From positions 1 to 32,292 of the forward strand of contig RDNZ01000030.1 in assembly GCA_011364905.1 (NCBI GenBank): a stretch of 32,292 nucleotides of DNA, read 5' to 3'. The stretch comes from Candidatus Thorarchaeota archaeon. GTDB lineage: Archaea; Asgardarchaeota; Thorarchaeia; Thorarchaeales; Thorarchaeaceae. Under the pieces are notes generated by a model. The model did no database searches. It saw nothing but the letters and a program-made list of their open reading frames with translations, and had not been told where the DNA came from. The position numbers and the translations under genes are program-made. This document shows, in pieces, positions 4,359-32,263 of the stretch. The stretch's first letter is position 1. Every line of letters starts with the position of its first letter.

Positions 4359-5333
4359 ATGCCAGAGAAGACATATAGAGACGCTCTCAAAGATGGACTC
4401 CGTGAGGAGATGATTAGGGACGAACGTGTCTTCATTATGGGGGAAGATGTTGGTCTGAACTGGGGTGGCGCATTTAAGGTAACAAAAGGACTTGCAGATG
4501 AGTTTGGCGAGGCTAGAGTACGAGACACGCCCATATCTGAGAACACCATTGCAGGCACAGCTGTGGGTGCCGCCATTACTGGGATGATCCCTGTAGCAGA
4601 GATCATGTTTGGGGACCTCATCACACTTGCGATGGACCAAGTCTGCAATCAAGCTGCGAAGATGAGATACATGTTTGGCGGGCAAACATCTGTACCATTG
4701 GTTCTTCGTACTGTCTTTGGCGGGGGTAAAAACATTGCATCACATCACTCGCAGAGCCTAGAGTCCTGGTTCATGCACACACCAGGTCTCAAGATAGCAG
4801 TTCCTGCGTTTGCATATGACGTAAAGGGCCTCATCAAGACAGCCATCAGAGACCCCAATCCTGTGTTATTCCTTGAGCACAAACTCGTTTACGACAAGAA
4901 GGAAGATGTACCTGATGAGGACTACACCGTCCCATTTGGCCAAGCTAAGGTGAGGAGAGAGGGTGAAGATGTGACAGTCTGGGGGACCTTTTTCATGCTT
5001 CATAAAGCTCTAGAAGTGGCTGATGAACTCGCCAAAGATGGCATAAGTGTAGAGGTTATCGACCCACGGACACTGGCACCATTGGACAAGAAAACTCTTA
5101 TCGAGTCAGTCAAGAAGACAGGCAGATTAGTCCTCGTGACTGAGGAAACCAAGACAGGAGCGACAACCGCGGAAATCGCAGCCACTGTCCAAGAGGAGGC
5201 TTTTGACTGGTTGGATGCTCCAATAAAGAGAGTGAATGCTCCTGATACACCAGTTCCATTCAGTCCACCACTTGAGGGCTATTTCATTCCGGATAACAAG
5301 CGTATAGCCCAAGCGATTCGAGAGATTGTATAG
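4359..5333 (+). CDS. 2-oxoacid/acetoin dehydrogenase E1 beta (PdhB/AcoB-like)
   Basis: GEDVG, DTPISE, NQAAK, HSQSLE and DPRTLAPLD motifs; abuts the E1 alpha gene. Confidence 0.95.
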   Translation: MPEKTYRDALKDGLREEMIRDERVFIMGEDVGLNWGGAFKVTKGLADEFGEARVRDTPISENTIAGTAVGAAITGMIPVAEIMFGDLITLAMDQVCNQAAKMRYMFGGQTSVPLVLRTVFGGGKNIASHHSQSLESWFMHTPGLKIAVPAFAYDVKGLIKTAIRDPNPVLFLEHKLVYDKKEDVPDEDYTVPFGQAKVRREGEDVTVWGTFFMLHKALEVADELAKDGISVEVIDPRTLAPLDKKTLIESVKKTGRLVLVTEETKTGATTAEIAATVQEEAFDWLDAPIKRVNAPDTPVPFSPPLEGYFIPDNKRIAQAIREIV

Positions 5334-5342
5334 GTGAAGTAA

Positions 5343-6578
5343 ATGGTATCAACCATGATAATGCAACGTATGAGCGTAGCAATGGAGTATGGCGTCATTC
5401 TCAAGTGGCTAAAAAAAGAAGGCGATACTGTAAAGCAGGGAGAACCTATTGTAGAGATTTTTGGTGAGAAGAACGAGTTCGAGCTGGAGGCACCAGCAGA
5501 CGGAGTCCTGCTCAAGATTCTATGCGATGTCGATGATGAGATTCCTATCAGTGAACCAATTGCCTACATTGGAAAGAAAGACGAAAAAGTTCCAGATGTC
5601 ATGCCAAGAAAGTTGAATGAGTCCGCTGCAATTGCGCCTACTACTCTTTCAGCAGCACCGGTAGTTGCCCCACTAGGAACGAAGACCTCCGCAAAAGCAG
5701 GAGCAGCAGTTGCTGAAACTCGTCTACCAAGTGGGAAGATCAAAGCTTCACCTCGTGCAAAGAAGAGAGCAGAGGAAATGGGAATCGACCTGGCCATACT
5801 GGTCGGAAGTGGACCCAATGGGAGGATAGTAGAGAAGGATGTACTTGCTGCACAAAGCCTTCCTCAGGCTACGATTTCAGATGAACGGAAAATCAAACAA
5901 GTCACATCTATGACACCACTGCGAAGGACTATTGCACGAAGAATGACCCAGAGCTCTCAGAATCCGCACATCACTATGATCACCGAGATTGATATGACTG
6001 AAGTCGTGCAGCTGCGAGCGGAGATTAATGAACGTGTGGAGAAAAAACACGGAGTCAGAGTGTCTTTCAATGACATTATTGTGAAAGCAGTAGCGGACGT
6101 ACTAGAAAGATTTCCAAAGTTCAATGCAACCCTCTCAGGCAACGACCTATTCATATTTGATGAGATAAACATAGGAGTAGCGATGGCGACTGAGGAGGGT
6201 TTAATCGTACCAACTGTGAGAAGCGCCAACAAGAAATCAATCACGGAGATAGCGCTTGAAACAAAGGACTTTGGTGCTCGAGCAAAGAAAAACGAGTTAA
6301 AACCCGAAGAACTCACGGGAAGCACATTCACCGTTTCCAATCTTGGCCCCTTCTATGTGGACTTGTTTATCCCAGTCATTAATCCACCAGAATCGGCGAT
6401 TCTTGCACTTGGGCAGATCAAGAAGAAACCGGTTGTCATCGAGGATACGATAGCTATTAGATCAACTATGATGGCAAGCTGTGCCGTCGACCACAGAGTT
6501 CTGGATGGTGCTCCTGCAGGACAGTTCCTTGCTGCTCTCAAGGAAACTCTAGAGAATCCATTCATGATGAAAATCTAG
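5343..6578 (+). CDS. Dihydrolipoamide acyltransferase E2 (one lipoyl domain, subunit-binding domain, catalytic domain)
   Basis: N-terminal lipoyl domain (WLKKEGDTVKQGEPIVEIFGEK), ASPRAKK...GSGPNGRI binding domain, TFTVSNLG, DHRVLDG catalytic His. Confidence 0.93.
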   Translation: MVSTMIMQRMSVAMEYGVILKWLKKEGDTVKQGEPIVEIFGEKNEFELEAPADGVLLKILCDVDDEIPISEPIAYIGKKDEKVPDVMPRKLNESAAIAPTTLSAAPVVAPLGTKTSAKAGAAVAETRLPSGKIKASPRAKKRAEEMGIDLAILVGSGPNGRIVEKDVLAAQSLPQATISDERKIKQVTSMTPLRRTIARRMTQSSQNPHITMITEIDMTEVVQLRAEINERVEKKHGVRVSFNDIIVKAVADVLERFPKFNATLSGNDLFIFDEINIGVAMATEEGLIVPTVRSANKKSITEIALETKDFGARAKKNELKPEELTGSTFTVSNLGPFYVDLFIPVINPPESAILALGQIKKKPVVIEDTIAIRSTMMASCAVDHRVLDGAPAGQFLAALKETLENPFMMKI

Positions 6579-21842: not shown

Positions 21843-23075
21843 ATGATGACGTTTGATGTAATTGTTGCGGGTACAGGTCCAGCTGGACTCATGACTGCAG
21901 AGAGGACTGCAAAGTACGGTTTGAAGACTCTAGTCCTGGAGAAGCGACAGAGTGTCACAAATTCACTCATGGGAGAACTGGTCACCGACAAAGCTTTGAA
22001 TTTTCTGCGGGTCAGACCAGATTCTGAGTACATTGGGAACAAGTTCTCATCGATTGTGGGAGAGAGTCTTGATACTGGATCAAAGATTGTTGTCGATAGG
22101 ACCCTCCTTGGAAATTCATACCTCTTCGATGAGGATAAGTGTCAAGAACTCATGAGAGATCGCGCACTCTCAGATGGTGCAGAGTTCCGATACAACTCCA
22201 GAGTCAAGTCAGTAGTCAAAGAGAATGATTCTGTTGTTGGAGTGAAGTACAATCAGGCGGAGGAAGAACGGGCAAGTCTGACAGTCGGAGCTGATGGCTC
22301 GTTTAGCAGGGTCTCTGAAACTGCTGGCTTTATACATCCAAAGTGGTTACTCAGCTATGGGTACAGATTTAAGCTCACAAATTGCAAGGGAATTGACCCG
22401 AGTACAGCGTACTTCTATGTTGGTGAAGACGTAGGCCTGGGTTATCTGTGGTTATATCCAAGATCTGAAACTGAAACCAATCTTGGGATTGGTCGAGTTC
22501 CGTCATCAAAATCAAAGTGGCAAGCGCTTCCTCCAATGAAGGAAGTCCTGAAGAAGTACATGAAGACGCATCCTGAAACAAAAGACGCAAAGATTGCTGC
22601 AGTGAATGGAGGCGTCGTCCCATGTGCAGGCATCATTCCCAGATTCACAGATGCAGGAGTCGCATTATGTGGGAACTCAGCTGGACAGGTCTCTTCAATC
22701 GTAGGTGGTGGGGTAACAACCTGTTTTCATGCCGGCCAGGTGCTAGCAAGACATGCGAAACGCATGGTGGACTCGAACGACTTTTCGAAACACAGTGTCA
22801 GACTATACGAGAAGGAGTACAGAAAGTCTAAATTGGCCTCTAACATCACTAACACAGGAAAGGGGATGTGGGCGGTTTCGAAGTATGCCATGTTTAATGA
22901 CCCGATCGAAGCAGCGGAGATTGTGCTTGGGCAACTCGATGCAAAGACTCTGAATGAACTTATTCAAGGACATGCCAGTGTGGGGACATTCATGACACTC
23001 ATGACAGATTTCCTCCCAATGGTCGCGAAGATTGGCGTAGGATATCTTCGAGCAATTGCTGTGAGCGGACTTTAA
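21843..23075 (+). CDS. Geranylgeranyl reductase family FAD oxidoreductase
   Basis: VAGTGPAG, GADG, GYLWLYP, GGVVP and GNSAGQV..GGG motifs. Confidence 0.9.
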   Translation: MMTFDVIVAGTGPAGLMTAERTAKYGLKTLVLEKRQSVTNSLMGELVTDKALNFLRVRPDSEYIGNKFSSIVGESLDTGSKIVVDRTLLGNSYLFDEDKCQELMRDRALSDGAEFRYNSRVKSVVKENDSVVGVKYNQAEEERASLTVGADGSFSRVSETAGFIHPKWLLSYGYRFKLTNCKGIDPSTAYFYVGEDVGLGYLWLYPRSETETNLGIGRVPSSKSKWQALPPMKEVLKKYMKTHPETKDAKIAAVNGGVVPCAGIIPRFTDAGVALCGNSAGQVSSIVGGGVTTCFHAGQVLARHAKRMVDSNDFSKHSVRLYEKEYRKSKLASNITNTGKGMWAVSKYAMFNDPIEAAEIVLGQLDAKTLNELIQGHASVGTFMTLMTDFLPMVAKIGVGYLRAIAVSGL

Positions 23076-23227
23076 AAAAAGAGAGAGAAGAGGAGATGAA
23101 GCAGGGGACACCCCCCCGCGCCGCCCTGCTTCGAGCCGATGGGTTTCCACCAGCCTGCCCTGTATCATGCCCGTTGTGGATTACCGTGAAGCATCCACCC
23201 GGAGTCAGCAGCAAACAGCTGCTGAAG
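23076..23227 (-). ncRNA. Candidate ~150-nt four-hairpin non-coding RNA
   Basis: TATA run 23246-23256; hairpins 23205-23225, 23171-23202, 23134-23155 and 23098-23132 with G-U pairs valid on the minus strand; ends in a C/U tract and oligo-U; GC-rich relative to flanks. Confidence 0.55.
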
Positions 23228-23316
23228 TAGGTATATCACTAGCAGTATATATATATCGTGTGGTTGTATACAGTCATAAAGTTAGTATAATGATGAATTT
23301 TGCGCCGTACTCATAA

Positions 23317-24372
23317 ATGAGTAAAGAGGGACGCACAATGACTCAAAATGATGAACTCTCAAAGGCTCTGGACCTTGTTGGACTAGCGGCCGGTGATAGA
23401 CAGGAGTCGCGTCTGATGAATCTGCTCAGTGTCATTCTTAGACTCCAGAAGGAGTCATCGACACCGCTAACCTTCTCAGAGATTTACGAAAAGTTGCTGA
23501 AAGATGAGCCGGAAACTAAGCTCACAAAGGCATGGGTTCATAGAGTGTTGAAATCGCTTGTTGACACCCAGTTAATCCGCTTGGAAAGCCCAAGCGTGCG
23601 GCGCAAGAGGTACATTGCTGACGTGAACACGGTGATGGCTGGACTTGAACATCTAAAGACGCAACGTCTTCATGCGTTGGAGGATCAAAAGACGGAAATC
23701 GATATTGCCATAGAAGAGGCCGCAAAACTGGAATGTGGAACTCTGGCTCAGGAGTTCGTCAAGGAAGTGACAGGTGCAACACAAGAGATTAGTTCACGGA
23801 TTGTCAAGGGTGTTGATGAACTTCATAGGGTACTCAAATACAATGTACTCGATGCAGCAAAGAAGGGAGATACAATCCGGGCTACCCTGCTTTGGGTGGG
23901 ACCGTTTTTTGGATCAGGGAGTCTAGAACGGGTACAAGAGTTCGTGGAAGCGGCGATGAGAGGCGTAGATGTGAGATATATGATCTCGCCTGATGTCCTA
24001 GGAGCAGAAGAAGCGATAGCACGAGAAAACGTAAATCAAGATAAAGCAGTTCAGTTGGTCCAAGGGCTTAATGAACTGAGGAAAAAAGGAGTGAAGTTTG
24101 ATTTTCGAATCTATATCGGTCCCAAGACATACTTTCAGGTGAGTCTGAATAATGACAACATGGCCCTAGTAATAACAGAGGACCCAATGACAGCCACTTG
24201 GATCACCAGAGACTTCAATCCAGATTTGATTGATAATGCAGTGAAGGCTTTTGATAGGGACTGGAAAAAAGCCAAATCAATTCTGGATATGACTCCTGAG
24301 GAACTAGTCGCCTTTGGTGCAGAACCCGGAGGATTAATTACCAAGATTTTAAGTAGCAGGAACGCTAACTAG
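23317..24372 (+). CDS. TrmB-like protein 1 (wHTH + coiled helix + PLD-like fold lacking HKD)
   Basis: LTFSEIY...TKAWVHRVLKSLVDTQLI wHTH; GVDVRYM; TYFQVSLN; NPDLIDNAVKAFDRDW. Alternative start ATG 23338. Confidence 0.75.
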   Translation: MSKEGRTMTQNDELSKALDLVGLAAGDRQESRLMNLLSVILRLQKESSTPLTFSEIYEKLLKDEPETKLTKAWVHRVLKSLVDTQLIRLESPSVRRKRYIADVNTVMAGLEHLKTQRLHALEDQKTEIDIAIEEAAKLECGTLAQEFVKEVTGATQEISSRIVKGVDELHRVLKYNVLDAAKKGDTIRATLLWVGPFFGSGSLERVQEFVEAAMRGVDVRYMISPDVLGAEEAIARENVNQDKAVQLVQGLNELRKKGVKFDFRIYIGPKTYFQVSLNNDNMALVITEDPMTATWITRDFNPDLIDNAVKAFDRDWKKAKSILDMTPEELVAFGAEPGGLITKILSSRNAN

Positions 24373-24397
24373 ATTGTATAGTGGGGGGTCGAGAGTT

Positions 24398-25306
24398 ATG
24401 ACGGAAATCCAGCATGAAAAAGTAATTGATATGATTGGATTAGATACAAAATCGAAGGACATGCTTGTTCTGAGAGCTTTGCTAAAGGCTCAAAATGATC
24501 CTACTGACTTTATCGATTTTGAATCGCTGCGCGAACAACTCGCAATTGAAGAGGGGTCTAGAAAGGGAAAAGATTCGCTCATATACAGAAGTCTTTCCTG
24601 GCTCGAATCTGAAGGATTCCTCAGGATTGATAAAAGCGGCCGCAAGCATGGGTACAATTCCAACATCGCAATTATCCAGACAGCACTGGCTAAGTTAGTG
24701 ACAAGAAGCATCAAGAATTCGGAGAAGGAGTTGAAAGATATCGACTCCAAGGTAGCAGTCCTCTCAGATATGAACCCAGATGTCATGGCTTCACGTCTGA
24801 TTGAGCTCTTAGCTGGAACAATGAAGATAGAGAAACCGGTTTTTGCTCAAGGCTGGGAGGATATTGTCAAACTACTCGATGACAAAGTGTACAATGGTTT
24901 GAAGAAGAGTGATGTTGTTAGAATCAAACTGGAATGGCTGTCTCACATCGACTATCTAGCTCGAGGCAGAATACTGAACATGAGAAAAATCGTCGAAAAA
25001 GGAGTGGATATACGAGCCTTGGATAATGACAGGGGGGAGGAGGAAATGCGACAACAATTGAAGAAGGTTCTTGTCAATTTGCGCGAAACCGGAGGAAATG
25101 TGGGATATATGATATTCCCACGCCAAGATGCAACCTATCAGTTCGTTTCGCGCAATACAGATGGTATCGTACTTATTGTGTCTGAAAGTCCACTCTCCGC
25201 AACATGGCTCCCAAGAACTGGCAATGCAGAGCTAGTTGACAATGCAATTGAGAACTTCGACAAGGATTACGAGTTGGGAACGGACCTCCTTGACTACAAG
25301 GGGTGA
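24398..25306 (+). CDS. TrmB-like protein 2 (paralogue)
   Basis: DSLIYRSLSWLESEGFL wHTH; GVDIRAL; TYQFVSRN; NAELVDNAIENFDKDY. Confidence 0.75.
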   Translation: MTEIQHEKVIDMIGLDTKSKDMLVLRALLKAQNDPTDFIDFESLREQLAIEEGSRKGKDSLIYRSLSWLESEGFLRIDKSGRKHGYNSNIAIIQTALAKLVTRSIKNSEKELKDIDSKVAVLSDMNPDVMASRLIELLAGTMKIEKPVFAQGWEDIVKLLDDKVYNGLKKSDVVRIKLEWLSHIDYLARGRILNMRKIVEKGVDIRALDNDRGEEEMRQQLKKVLVNLRETGGNVGYMIFPRQDATYQFVSRNTDGIVLIVSESPLSATWLPRTGNAELVDNAIENFDKDYELGTDLLDYKG

Positions 25307-26274
25307 GTAAGATGCCAAGCAAGAAAGTCAAAAGCGATCTTGAACTACTGGGAATTGACCTGAGTGCAAGTCAGATGCAGACCTTTCAGGCAGTTCTCTA
25401 TGCAGCAGGAAGCACAAGAAAAGCTGTCGAATATGATCAGATTGCGGAGCATCTTGAAACGCAGGCTGGTAAGAAATTCACAAAAGCCTACGTCTACAGA
25501 CAACTTCGGGACCTAGAGGAAATAGGATTAATCAAAACAGACACCATCGCGCGCCCAAGAAATTACAGCATCACGGAGTCTTCTGTGGCAAAAGCACTTG
25601 AATCGCAAAGACTGAAGAAAATATCTGAATATCTAACACTAAGACAAGACCTGACTACTAATCTTAATCGGCTTAGGGCAACCAACCCTCAAGATCTGGC
25701 AATTATGCTTCATAGAACATTGGTGGGATCTTCATCAGTCGGAAAATCAGGCGTCATTGAGGGAGTTGAGAACGTTAGACACACAATCATTCGAGAGTTT
25801 GCAGACGAAGCAAAAGAGGGTGACACAGTAAGAATTCTTGCCCATTCAAGCACTATAGTTGACGGACTTGGACCGCCTGGGGTCACTGAATTCAAAATTT
25901 TGGAAACTGGTTTTAGAGGTGTGAAGGTCATGGGACTCCTCACCCCGATAGGTCAAGACTCAGCTAATCCGAATCTTATGGCAGGTTTTCTGACACCGAT
26001 GATTGATATCTTCGACCAAGTAAGCAAAACGGGCAATATTCAACTCAAAATCTCTCAAGAGCCAGCCAATACATACAGAATGGTTTCTCTAAATGAAAGC
26101 AAGATGCTGCTCTATCTGACGCATGCCAAGGAGTCGGACATGGCTGCTTTGGTCCATCACGAAGACAACCCTGGGCTAATTGATGATGCGATTAGGACTT
26201 TTGACACACTCTGGGAAACTGGGGTAGATGTTCTTGATATTGTAAAGCAAATGTTACACAAGAAAAGCTCCTAG
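25303..26274 (+). CDS. TrmB-like protein 3 (paralogue)
   Basis: TKAYVYRQLRDLEEIGLI wHTH; GVKVMGL; TYRMVSLN; NPGLIDDAIRTFDTLW; start overlaps the previous stop. Confidence 0.75.
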   Translation: MSKMPSKKVKSDLELLGIDLSASQMQTFQAVLYAAGSTRKAVEYDQIAEHLETQAGKKFTKAYVYRQLRDLEEIGLIKTDTIARPRNYSITESSVAKALESQRLKKISEYLTLRQDLTTNLNRLRATNPQDLAIMLHRTLVGSSSVGKSGVIEGVENVRHTIIREFADEAKEGDTVRILAHSSTIVDGLGPPGVTEFKILETGFRGVKVMGLLTPIGQDSANPNLMAGFLTPMIDIFDQVSKTGNIQLKISQEPANTYRMVSLNESKMLLYLTHAKESDMAALVHHEDNPGLIDDAIRTFDTLWETGVDVLDIVKQMLHKKSS

Positions 26275-27344
26275 TTCTCTGATACCCAACTATTGTTCTT
26301 TGTAAGGGTCAAAAAGATATCATCACAGACAGCTGAGAAGTCCTCATAGAGACCGTACTCTCCGCCAGCGGCATAGGGATGTCCCCCGCCATTGAACAAC
26401 TTTGCTGCGGCATTGCATAGGACTCCATCGCTACCCCGTCTAAAACCAAGCATTCCACCTTGACTCAGCGATAGTAATAGGTCTGCAACCCTCAGCTCGG
26501 GATCGATAGAACTCAAAATCCCCGAGTCAGATGCGTACGTACCCATGTCTGTGGAGGTCAGTCCACTGGGTATCTCCACAATCCGAACAAGTTTCCCGTG
26601 AATTATCTGATCGTGATGGCCGGCCAATGCCTTTCTCATTTTCTTTGTTTTCTCTTTCCTATAGTTGTCTACCCTTTTATCAAGAAGCGTGTCCTTGAAT
26701 CTGTGTGTGTTCTTGTCCCATACACCGTCCATGCCACTCTCAGCTAGTTTCTCGAGGAGTACATATAGAGCATCTGTGACATCCTCCTTCCTATCTATAG
26801 CTCCAAAGCGGATGACGCTGACTGCATCTGTGAGTGCTGTCGCAGCCTCAATCTCACGGAGATTGAAATCTGTATCATGCGCAATCCGGGCAAGTTCCGT
26901 GCAGACTTCGTCTCGAGGCATAAGGACCTTGTGTGCAATCTCTGATGCACAAAAATCGTGGTTCACCTTCAACACAGGCTTATTCCCAAGAGAGAGAACC
27001 ATCTTAATCGAGCGGTCATGCCACTGGTGATGATCGAGCCAGACTATGCGGCATCCTTGAGAGATTGCTCTTTCGAGTCCAGCCTGAACCATCTCAATAA
27101 TAGCATCGTCCATTCCAAGATCTGTGATAACAATCAGCGTATCTCGTTGATTACCGATCATAGAGAATATCTGTTCGAAAGAGCCGTAGTCAGTGAGAAT
27201 TGCTTTGAAATCAAGACCCTTTGTCTTCGCATATCTCCAAACAATTGCCGCGGCGTTTAGTCCATCAACGTCTTTATCGTGAGAGATAGAGAGAAGTGAG
27301 GTAATTCTCTTCGTGTTCTGCTCGCTTTCTCGTTCATCAGGCAT
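26271..27344 (-). CDS. DHH/DHHA1 family phosphoesterase (nanoRNase-like)
   Basis: HDKDVDG, ITDLG, LDHH and GGGHPYAAG motifs. Confidence 0.9.
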   Translation of the reverse strand: MPDERESEQNTKRITSLLSISHDKDVDGLNAAAIVWRYAKTKGLDFKAILTDYGSFEQIFSMIGNQRDTLIVITDLGMDDAIIEMVQAGLERAISQGCRIVWLDHHQWHDRSIKMVLSLGNKPVLKVNHDFCASEIAHKVLMPRDEVCTELARIAHDTDFNLREIEAATALTDAVSVIRFGAIDRKEDVTDALYVLLEKLAESGMDGVWDKNTHRFKDTLLDKRVDNYRKEKTKKMRKALAGHHDQIIHGKLVRIVEIPSGLTSTDMGTYASDSGILSSIDPELRVADLLLSLSQGGMLGFRRGSDGVLCNAAAKLFNGGGHPYAAGGEYGLYEDFSAVCDDIFLTLTKNNSWVSEN

Positions 27345-29920: not shown

Positions 29921-32263
29921 TTAATGCTCTTTCTTCTTGGCCTCGTGCATCTTCCGAGCTTCCTGCCACATGACATCAGCCAGTACAGTGAACATATCAG
30001 CGACACCCTCACCTGTCTTTGCTGAGGACTCCATGTACAGAAAACCATTGTCCTCAGCCCAGCGCTTTGCCTCATCAGATGGCACTGCACGGTCGGGGAG
30101 GTCTGTCTTGTTGCCTACGCATACCATGGGCACTCGCGTTCCAATCGACTCGTCAGCCTCTTCGACCCACTTGGCCAACTCTGTGAATGACCTGCGACGG
30201 GTCACATCGAACACCAGGATGATCCCTGCTGCACCGGAGTAGTACATCTTCCGGACTGCCTTGAATCGCGCTTGCCCAGCAACGTCCCACGCCTGGAGCT
30301 TAATGCCTATCGAGTACTCCTCCTTTGGCGGCGAGATGTGGGCGAGCTTGACTGCGAACTGACTCCCTATCGTGGTCTTGTAGTCTCGCTCGAACACTCC
30401 GGTGACGTACCGGTTCACGAGGGTTGTCTTGCCCACAGCCCCCTCTCCGATCACCATCGTTTTGAATAGGAATTGGTAGGAGTCTGGAGCGGTCCCGGGA
30501 CGTGGAGCCTTGGGGCTTCTGTTACGAATGTCAGCTACGAGTTGACTCTCAGTGTCACTCACAGCTGCAATCGTGACCGTTTCAGCAGGTGTTGGTTCAG
30601 CCGCAAGGGCAGCTAGGTCATCTAGCTCAGCCATTTGAGCCTCGGTTTCCTCAGCACCAAAGAGCTGGTCGAGGAGTTCCTCTGCAGCCTTCAATGATTC
30701 GGTAGCATCATCAGACATGGTCGTGTGCAAGATATCAGACGCCTTGTCACGTATCTCTGAGTCTCCAAATCCCGTACCGACAACAGGTCCAAATGGAGTC
30801 TCTTCGACGACTTCAGGAGTCTCATGGGTAACAACAGGTTCTACTGTGACAGGGGCGACAGCCGCTGGAGCAGCCACAGCCGCACCTTTCTCGACAAGAA
30901 TAGCGGTCTCAGGCGTCGTGACTTGCCGAACCTGACCAGCTGGGTCAGTCCACATCAGCACGATGGGTCGAACAATCACTGTTCCTTCCTCCTTTGGCAT
31001 CATCTGCACATCAATGCTGTTACTCTGTCCAGGAGCTAGATCGAAACGCAGTTGTTGGGGATCGACATCCATATGGTCTTTGGGGAACCAGTAGACTTTC
31101 CCAGAGATACCGTTGATTGTTTCATTGCTGACATTGTAGACCGTGATCTTGCCCCTGAGCTCAGCACCGGTCTTAGTCTCTGAACTCACTTCGAAGGTTG
31201 GGATTATCTTGTAGAGACCTTCAATGACTTGTAATGGGGCATCAGAGATACCAACTTGGACCTCCTTTCGTCCGTCCCCTCCAGCATCGCCAACATTGAT
31301 TGCAAGTATCTTCTTCCCAATGTTGACCGAGGCCAGCTGGTTAAGGTCCGCCATACGAAGGCTGTAGAAGTTGATCTTGAAGTCAGAGGTGGCAACCACA
31401 ATCTCATCCTGATGGTCAGCATTTATCTCTTCAATTCGTAATGATAATGCTTTCACATCCTCAAGCTTGGAGAATAGGTCTAGTTTGCTCTCTTCGTTGC
31501 GATATATCCGAACCGAGCCATCATGCGTGACGACACCAAGCTCCATTTTCCTATCGCCCAGCACATCACCTGATGCCACAGATATAACAGGGCTTGGTAG
31601 TTCGATGACCTCAATCTGGTCCACTGAGTGGTCACGCACCTTGAAAACACGAAGAGTACGGTCTCTGTTTCCTGTGACAATTTCTTCAATCTCATCGCCA
31701 ATCACGTCACATGTCCCAATCGCGATTGGCATGTCATCCAACTGATACTTGACGAACTCTGTGATCTTGTTGAAAGTGTCCATCTGTAGGATCCGGAGGG
31801 TCGAGTCGCTCCCACCGACGAGAATCTCGTTCTTCTCATCGCCGGTCACATCTGTGACATAGACAGCAGTGACGAATCGGTCCACAGGAAATTCTGCCAG
31901 AAGCTCAAGCCTGCCGCTTGGAGCATATCTAAAGACTTGGACTGTGCCGACTTCTCCGGGCCGCTCATTGCTTCCTACTGCTCGACCAATGACCAACTCC
32001 ATTTGCCCATCATTATTTGCATCAGCGACCTTGATGGAGAGGATACTTCCTCCCACATCATGCTGCGCAAGAAACGCAACAGAACTTTTGTTGGCATCAT
32101 AGAGACGGAGGACACCATCACGACCTCCTGTGCATAACTCAGCTGTCCCACTGCCAGTAACATCTCCCACTGCAATGGCGCTCGTGCTTTCGTCGTCTTC
32201 GATTTCGAACAGAACCTTAGGTGAATCCAAGTCAGCAACCTTCCTGTTAGTATCAGCATCCAT
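29921..32263 (-). CDS. Seven-repeat FG-GAP-like beta-propeller + beta-sandwich + acidic linker + C-terminal Rab-like GTPase
   Basis: Seven D-x-x-G/N-D-like repeats; GEGAVGKT, TTIG, WDVAGQ, NKTD, SAK. An in-frame stop upstream (32279-32281) shows the ORF is complete. Confidence 0.9.
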   Translation of the reverse strand: MDADTNRKVADLDSPKVLFEIEDDESTSAIAVGDVTGSGTAELCTGGRDGVLRLYDANKSSVAFLAQHDVGGSILSIKVADANNDGQMELVIGRAVGSNERPGEVGTVQVFRYAPSGRLELLAEFPVDRFVTAVYVTDVTGDEKNEILVGGSDSTLRILQMDTFNKITEFVKYQLDDMPIAIGTCDVIGDEIEEIVTGNRDRTLRVFKVRDHSVDQIEVIELPSPVISVASGDVLGDRKMELGVVTHDGSVRIYRNEESKLDLFSKLEDVKALSLRIEEINADHQDEIVVATSDFKINFYSLRMADLNQLASVNIGKKILAINVGDAGGDGRKEVQVGISDAPLQVIEGLYKIIPTFEVSSETKTGAELRGKITVYNVSNETINGISGKVYWFPKDHMDVDPQQLRFDLAPGQSNSIDVQMMPKEEGTVIVRPIVLMWTDPAGQVRQVTTPETAILVEKGAAVAAPAAVAPVTVEPVVTHETPEVVEETPFGPVVGTGFGDSEIRDKASDILHTTMSDDATESLKAAEELLDQLFGAEETEAQMAELDDLAALAAEPTPAETVTIAAVSDTESQLVADIRNRSPKAPRPGTAPDSYQFLFKTMVIGEGAVGKTTLVNRYVTGVFERDYKTTIGSQFAVKLAHISPPKEEYSIGIKLQAWDVAGQARFKAVRKMYYSGAAGIILVFDVTRRRSFTELAKWVEEADESIGTRVPMVCVGNKTDLPDRAVPSDEAKRWAEDNGFLYMESSAKTGEGVADMFTVLADVMWQEARKMHEAKKKEH

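Follow-up and report, generated by a model that had tools for sequence, protein, structure and literature searches.

A structured small RNA gene divergent from three TrmB-like paralogues in one family of Thorarchaeia

What is encoded by the GC-rich island that separates a geranylgeranyl reductase family gene from three closely spaced paralogous genes in a Thorarchaeota genome, and is it connected with the proteins that these genes encode? The island lies in contig RDNZ01000030.1 of Candidatus Thorarchaeota archaeon (assembly GCA_011364905.1), of which positions 1 to 32,292 were analysed; this whole stretch of 32,292 nucleotides (nt) is referred to as the window. An earlier interpretation, made without database searches and called here the sequence-only reading, had placed in the island a stand-alone structured small RNA, transcribed from the minus strand and divergently from the three-gene operon (genes pA, pB and pC). 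Comparison with related genomes supports this proposal and shows a real, new RNA family. Its gene occurs in single copy, encodes a structured non-coding RNA of ~150 nt and is specific to one family of Thorarchaeia. To our knowledge, few structured non-coding RNAs have been described from Asgard archaea beyond the universal ones. The RNA can be tested directly since it has unusually clear comparative support, a fixed genomic address and defined candidate protein partners.

Fold of the RNA in the window

The intergenic gap between the reductase gene and pA is 241 nt long, and the G+C content of the island inside it reaches 65%, compared to 34-36% in the remainder of the gap. The minus strand of positions 23076-23240 has a minimum folding energy of -67.5 kcal/mol (z -2.7, 200 shuffles), whereas the plus strand folds differently and more poorly (-52.5 kcal/mol, z -1.9). 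Such a single-sequence fold is modest evidence only, and the case for an RNA therefore rests on the cross-genome comparison. A covariance model matches the window at 23071-23228 with 168-173 bits. Together with the fold and 48 homologous loci, this match defines the predicted small RNA gene at 23074..23228 on the minus strand, with the 5' end estimated from the distance to a TATA-like box and the 3' end placed within an oligo-U run.

All four consecutive minus-strand hairpins (H1 to H4) that the sequence-only reading had drawn in the gap are present where it put them. H1 (23205..23225) has an 8-bp (base pair) stem and a 5-nt loop. Its sequence varies freely while pairing is kept: both sides have changed in six of the seven modelled pairs, and other genera have different stem sequences. 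H2 (23170..23202) has an invariant lead-in, ACUCCG, and a conserved G-U closing pair. It is followed by an unpaired linker to H3 (23157..23169), which is nearly invariant in the alignments and has the consensus GCAUGNUACAGGGC. H3 (23134..23156) is variable in sequence and length, with double changes at all nine pairs, and is missing in some genomes (loci L025, L054 and L056). The most conserved part is H4 (23098..23132), in which a 9-bp lower stem, GAAGCAGGG/CCCUGCUUC, carries an upper stem with G-U pairs and then a G-rich apical loop. Most of the 48 loci retain this lower stem unbroken, and compensatory changes in it occur in L019/L020, L024, L049 and L066. The nearly invariant parts of the RNA are H2 and H4 with the unpaired stretches that separate them, including the lead-in to H2, the linker after it, and the lower stem and apical loop of H4. 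The polypyrimidine/oligo-U end of the earlier proposal corresponds to a pyrimidine-rich tail at 23074..23097. The tail ends in U7, a run complementary to the stop codon of the reductase gene and the A-run that follows. All of these elements are on the minus strand.

Conservation, covariation and strand

The element is single-copy in its own genome. Within the genus, BLAST recovers copies with 70-89% identity from about 20 of the 27 genomes. Two covariance models were used, R1, built from the same-genus copies, and a second, broader model, R2. With these, 53 of 87 genomes of the order were positive, 52 of them with one copy each. The matches are confined to one Thorarchaeia family, where they cover 8 of its 16 genera; in two more genera of this family, a weaker look-alike occupies the equivalent position and strand. 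No match was found when R2 was searched against 124 Asgard genomes outside the family. The homologues at the equivalent position amount to 48 loci, and the layout H1-H2-H3-H4 was recovered when homologues were folded singly.

Pairing and covariation were counted in an alignment of 30 sequences fitted to the covariance model. Standard pairs fill 87% of the cells (91-95% in helices 2-4), and both sides have changed at 32 of the 43 pairs. None of 500 column shuffles reached the observed pairing values, and sliding the 3' partners by 1-3 columns left 36-47% paired. Compensatory changes in H1, H3 and H4 are visible in a plain MAFFT alignment as well. That imperfect pairs are G-U on the minus strand only, as the sequence-only reading claimed, is confirmed by the counts: among the 30 homologues there are 160 G-U cells against 36 A-C cells, and the minus strand folds better in 29 of the 30. 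The excess of G-U and the better folding of this strand indicate that the RNA corresponds to the minus strand. When covariation was examined over all column pairs, no long-range or pseudoknot pair stood out. The candidate long-range partners (ACUCC with the G-run, and the G-run with the CU-rich tail) are all invariant, and the search has no power for such pairs.

Transcription signals

The TATA run that the sequence-only reading had seen upstream of the RNA corresponds to a TATA-like box at 23246..23256 (minus strand), centred ~26 nt before H1. Across the 48 loci, the A+T fraction is 0.77-0.92 at positions -30 to -23 from H1 and about 0.5 on either side. This AT-rich peak fits an archaeal TATA box centred near -26. 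The 22 nt from the box to H1 are not conserved, as expected if transcription starts at H1. At the other end, T runs of 5-8 occur in most same-genus loci, with most copies ending in T6-T8 directly at the reductase stop codon, and in more distant copies the T runs are shorter or displaced.

Between the divergent promoters lies a conserved block of 26 bp (23262..23287), flanked by the TATA-like box of the RNA and the leader of pA. It may serve the three-gene operon as operator or promoter. It is nearly invariant within the genus, recognisable in other genera, and contains the palindrome TGTATACA.

Comparison with known RNA classes

Rfam 15 gave no match in the window at the gathering score. A permissive Rfam search of 22950-23400 returned only chance-level matches (E about 5), and none fell on the RNA when 20 homologous loci were searched with E values up to 5-10. 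With one copy per genome and no Rfam match, the element can be called neither a dispersed repeat nor a member of any known Rfam family; the single copy in its own genome and in 52 of the 53 positive genomes also led us to reject a mobile element.

Several specific identities were considered and rejected. Signal recognition particle (SRP) RNA, ribonuclease (RNase) P RNA and 5S rRNA can be dismissed because their models (RF01857, RF00373 and RF00001) match other contigs in G001, G062, G030 and G028, all of which also carry the small RNA. A C/D box small RNA should have C (RUGAUGA) and D (CUGA) boxes at its two ends, forming a kink-turn (K-turn). The consensus lacks RUGAUGA, and the CUGA that follows H1 here is CUAA in most homologues. 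An H/ACA small RNA does not fit either: the conserved ACA of the linker sits 6-7 nt after the H2 stem and not directly behind it, H2 has neither a pseudouridylation pocket nor a GA-type K-loop, and there is no Rfam H/ACA match. ARAGORN found no tRNA or transfer-messenger RNA in the window. A riboswitch or other cis-acting 5' leader would need a gene downstream on its own strand; it was rejected because nothing but the 3' end of the reductase gene, which is convergent, follows there. A literature search for a described Thorarchaeota or Asgard RNA of this kind found nothing relevant.

During these searches, two matches to the archaeal RNase P RNA model were seen on one contig of G001 (G001:C7:28603-28942 and 31249-31574; 157 and 110 bits). 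They are 2.3 kilobases apart and both exceed the gathering score.

The three paralogous genes

The genes on the other side of the control region, all on the plus strand, are pA (23338..24372), pB (24374..25306) and pC (25303..26274). They are mutually paralogous, with 24-25% identity and E values of 1e-18 to 4e-29, the latter for pB against pA (25% identity). The stop of pA lies 1-25 nt before the start of pB, depending on the start codon chosen, and the start of pC overlaps the stop of pB by 4 nt. This order and the stop/start overlaps recur in other genera. With a profile of the proteins, matches were obtained in 71 of the 76 family genomes, as a rule three per genome, and in none of 225 Asgard genomes outside the family.

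The sequence-only reading described these genes as three tightly coupled TrmB-like genes with a winged helix-turn-helix (wHTH) and a phospholipase D (PLD)-like domain, a description that agrees with the paralogy, the close spacing and the fold matches of pA. An AlphaFold2 model of pA, calculated with 27 sequences, has a pLDDT (predicted local distance difference test) score of 83. Foldseek matched it best to TrmBL2 (5box/5bpd; E 6.5e-11, ~310 columns) and next to TrmB (3qph; E 7.6e-7), followed by PLD-fold proteins for the C-terminal half; Nuc, Zucchini and PLD3 are among the matches. By fold, pA has an N-terminal wHTH, a coiled-coil dimerisation helix and a PLD-like middle domain. The sequence models remain below threshold. 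Pfam and NCBIfam gave only sub-threshold wHTH and PLDc_2 matches for the three proteins: the sole match of PF01978 (TrmB) is to pC (E 0.14; 12.5 bits, the gathering score being 25.6), and PLDc_2 matches pA at E 0.059. A profile search of the sequences in the Protein Data Bank gave only weak MarR/Fur-type matches. The label of a TrmB-like wHTH plus PLD-like protein thus rests on fold, and modelling of pA supports it for the group. TrmBL2 and TrmB are DNA-binding regulators (PMC3031468).

On the far side, a DHH/DHHA1 phosphoesterase gene (26271-27344, minus strand) converges on pC with a 4-nt overlap. In the genomes that have lost the triplet it is the direct upstream neighbour of the RNA. The reductase family gene at the opposite flank (21843..23075, plus strand; Pfam FAD_binding_3 and GGR_cat) is convergent with the RNA.

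Relation between the RNA and the three genes

In 46 of the 48 loci, the RNA stands head-to-head with pA on one side, and on the other it meets the reductase gene tail-to-tail. We propose that the RNA and the divergent TrmBL2-like operon form one regulatory module, with the RNA as a trans-acting output of a shared control region, and put the chances of this at about even. The two transcription units would share a control region of ~110 bp that holds the conserved 26-bp block. The TrmBL2-like proteins would bind this region and set both promoters, that of their own operon and that of the RNA gene. The RNA, as the output of the circuit, would act in trans via its invariant unpaired segments and the G-rich loop, and more probably by binding a protein than by pairing with a long antisense target. 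No long complementary sites for the linker, the H1-H2 junction, the H4 loop or the tail were found in the RNA's own genome, which is 81% complete; the search returned only the RNA locus itself or short chance matches. With no long complement elsewhere and no additional long-range covariation, protein recognition is favoured over antisense targeting.

A number of observations weigh against such a module. Genome G001, which is 97% complete and belongs to the same genus, has no pA, pB or pC anywhere and yet has kept the RNA (75 bits), which indicates that the RNA can persist without the proteins. The order there is reductase gene, RNA and DHH gene, with a TATA-like box at the right distance, and the 26-bp block has been deleted together with the triplet. 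In G012, the nearest relative of G001, the triplet is present and the RNA is equally diverged. Furthermore, the whole block of reductase gene, RNA, triplet and DHH gene is syntenic, and synteny within one family is therefore weak functional evidence. The alignment used to count covariation was fitted to the structure and is hence biased in its favour, and the promoter, the ends and the transcript of the RNA are inferred from sequence.

The retention of the RNA in G001 raises the alternative of an independent small RNA, whose function is unrelated to the neighbouring proteins and whose position only reflects inherited gene order. It would also account for G094, where a second, independent deletion of the triplet has left a weaker copy (19 bits) between the DHH and reductase genes, for an RNA in G001 that is no more diverged than in its triplet-bearing sister, and for the equal synteny of the flanking genes. 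Faster decay of the RNA after triplet loss was looked for in the same genomes: one finds a mismatch within H4 in G001 and a disrupted H4 in G094, and defects of this hairpin occur in some triplet-bearing genomes too. On the other hand, RNA and triplet have exactly the same narrow taxonomic range of one family. They remain together after a rearrangement in G075, where an additional pA-like gene has come to separate the RNA from the reductase gene but the promoter block and the triplet are still beside the RNA, and G066 (97% complete) has neither a triplet nor a detectable RNA. We regard an independent function as unlikely, although a possibility of some weight. A closer connection than the proposed module is conceivable too. 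The RNA could be a direct ligand, decoy or scaffold of a hetero-oligomer of pA, pB and pC, so that together they form a ribonucleoprotein regulator. Invariant unpaired segments and a G-rich loop are suggestive of protein contacts, RNA and triplet share their location and their taxonomic distribution, and the conserved gene order with overlapping stops and starts would fit a hetero-oligomer. The PLD-like domain is degenerate, and its fold binds nucleic-acid phosphates in other families. However, the RNA survives without the proteins in G001, and in the literature searched no TrmB-family member is reported to need RNA and nothing relevant was found on RNA binding by TrmBL2. It is rather doubtful that the RNA has such a role, and we are equally doubtful of its specific form, in which the RNA is dedicated to the three proteins and, as a decoy or a scaffold, titrates a chromatin-type regulator or assembles it through the degenerate PLD-like domains. 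If true, RNA-controlled transcription regulators would have an archaeal counterpart here, one specific to this lineage.

Two further explanations look away from the triplet. In nearly all loci, the U-run of the RNA and the stop codon of the reductase gene overlap. On the plus strand, no T5 run occurs from this stop codon to about 23297, so transcription of the reductase gene may continue through the RNA gene. The element might then be an antisense partner of the 3' end of the reductase mRNA or a barrier to convergent transcription, which would agree with its position beside the reductase gene also in G001 and G094. Plain antisense action, however, needs no conserved fold, invariant loops or G-U pairs; in G075 the inserted gene intervenes between RNA and reductase gene; and no such RNA lies near the reductase orthologues of the genomes that were searched outside the family. 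A cis-acting element of the reductase gene is improbable in view of this. It is barely credible that the element is not an RNA gene at all but a small protein-coding open reading frame (ORF) or a DNA-level element. The plus strand of this genome does have a frame of 44 codons from an ATG at 23096 that is preceded by GAGGAG. Among 30 homologues, however, there is no conserved ORF on either strand. An opposite-strand ORF of at least 25 codons occurs in only five of them, which differ in its frame and sequence. Spacings between conserved anchors and indels differ by non-multiples of three, and the compensatory and G-U changes indicate RNA pairing on the minus strand.

As a separate observation, locus L067 (G075:C2) contains a second GC-rich and apparently structured stretch with a G-run at ~5330-5450 on the minus strand, situated between the RNA promoter block and the next pA gene.

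Comparison with known systems

The sequence-only reading stated that no described system has this layout, which is too strong. In bacteria, small RNA genes may be divergent from the gene of their own transcription factor, as in oxyS/oxyR and gcvB/gcvA, and these pairs share the layout: a short structured RNA with its own promoter and terminator stands head-to-head with a regulator and shares a control region with it. The arrangement seen here, being like these small RNA-regulator pairs, is not without precedent. There are clear differences. The promoter is of the archaeal type, three TrmBL2-like paralogues take the place of one LysR-type protein, no antisense seed or target was found for the RNA, and the systems have no sequence or structural relation. 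Control of the RNA promoter by the regulator is in our case a proposal drawn from sequence.

TrmB-family proteins bind inverted repeats near promoters, e.g., the TGM motif of Thermococcales. Over the columns matched, the pA model shares with TrmBL2 and TrmB the winged helix, the long coiled coil and the PLD-like domain. The three proteins differ in having a sequence similarity below all Pfam and NCBIfam cut-offs, and they exceed TrmBL2 by ~80 residues. They also form a constant triplet of paralogues and adjoin a structured RNA gene, a neighbourhood that the literature searched does not describe for TrmB proteins. Should the triplet prove to bind or control the RNA, the TrmB family, with its archaeal regulators and chromatin proteins, would be connected to an RNA for the first time.

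The RNA itself resembles the Hgc RNAs of methanogens, which are orphan structured non-coding RNAs that comparative genomics revealed as GC-rich islands. Both lie as GC-rich islands in AT-richer intergenic DNA and have a covarying fold of several hairpins. The present RNA differs from such orphans in having no Rfam match and in its restriction to one Thorarchaeia family and one genomic position. Even if it is not tied to the triplet, it remains a new RNA family with good support, which deserves an entry in Rfam and in the annotation of Thorarchaeia genomes.

Start and leader of pA

The longest ORF of pA begins at an alternative upstream start, 23317, which lies inside a palindrome of the leader. 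Both the orthologues, which begin at the equivalent of 23338, and the spacing to the Shine-Dalgarno-like sequence indicate that this is the true start. The palindrome (23308..23323, plus strand) is conserved in the genus and sits just before the Shine-Dalgarno-like AAGAGGG. It has arms of 6-7 nt and a spacer of 2-4 nt. In several orthologues, the arms pair only via G-U on the sense strand, which suggests that the palindrome acts as an RNA hairpin, instead of or besides being a protein operator.

One pA orthologue (G068:C73:72002-72991, in a genome that is 98% complete) has three in-frame TGA codons. This may reflect a broken gene, a sequencing problem or recoding.

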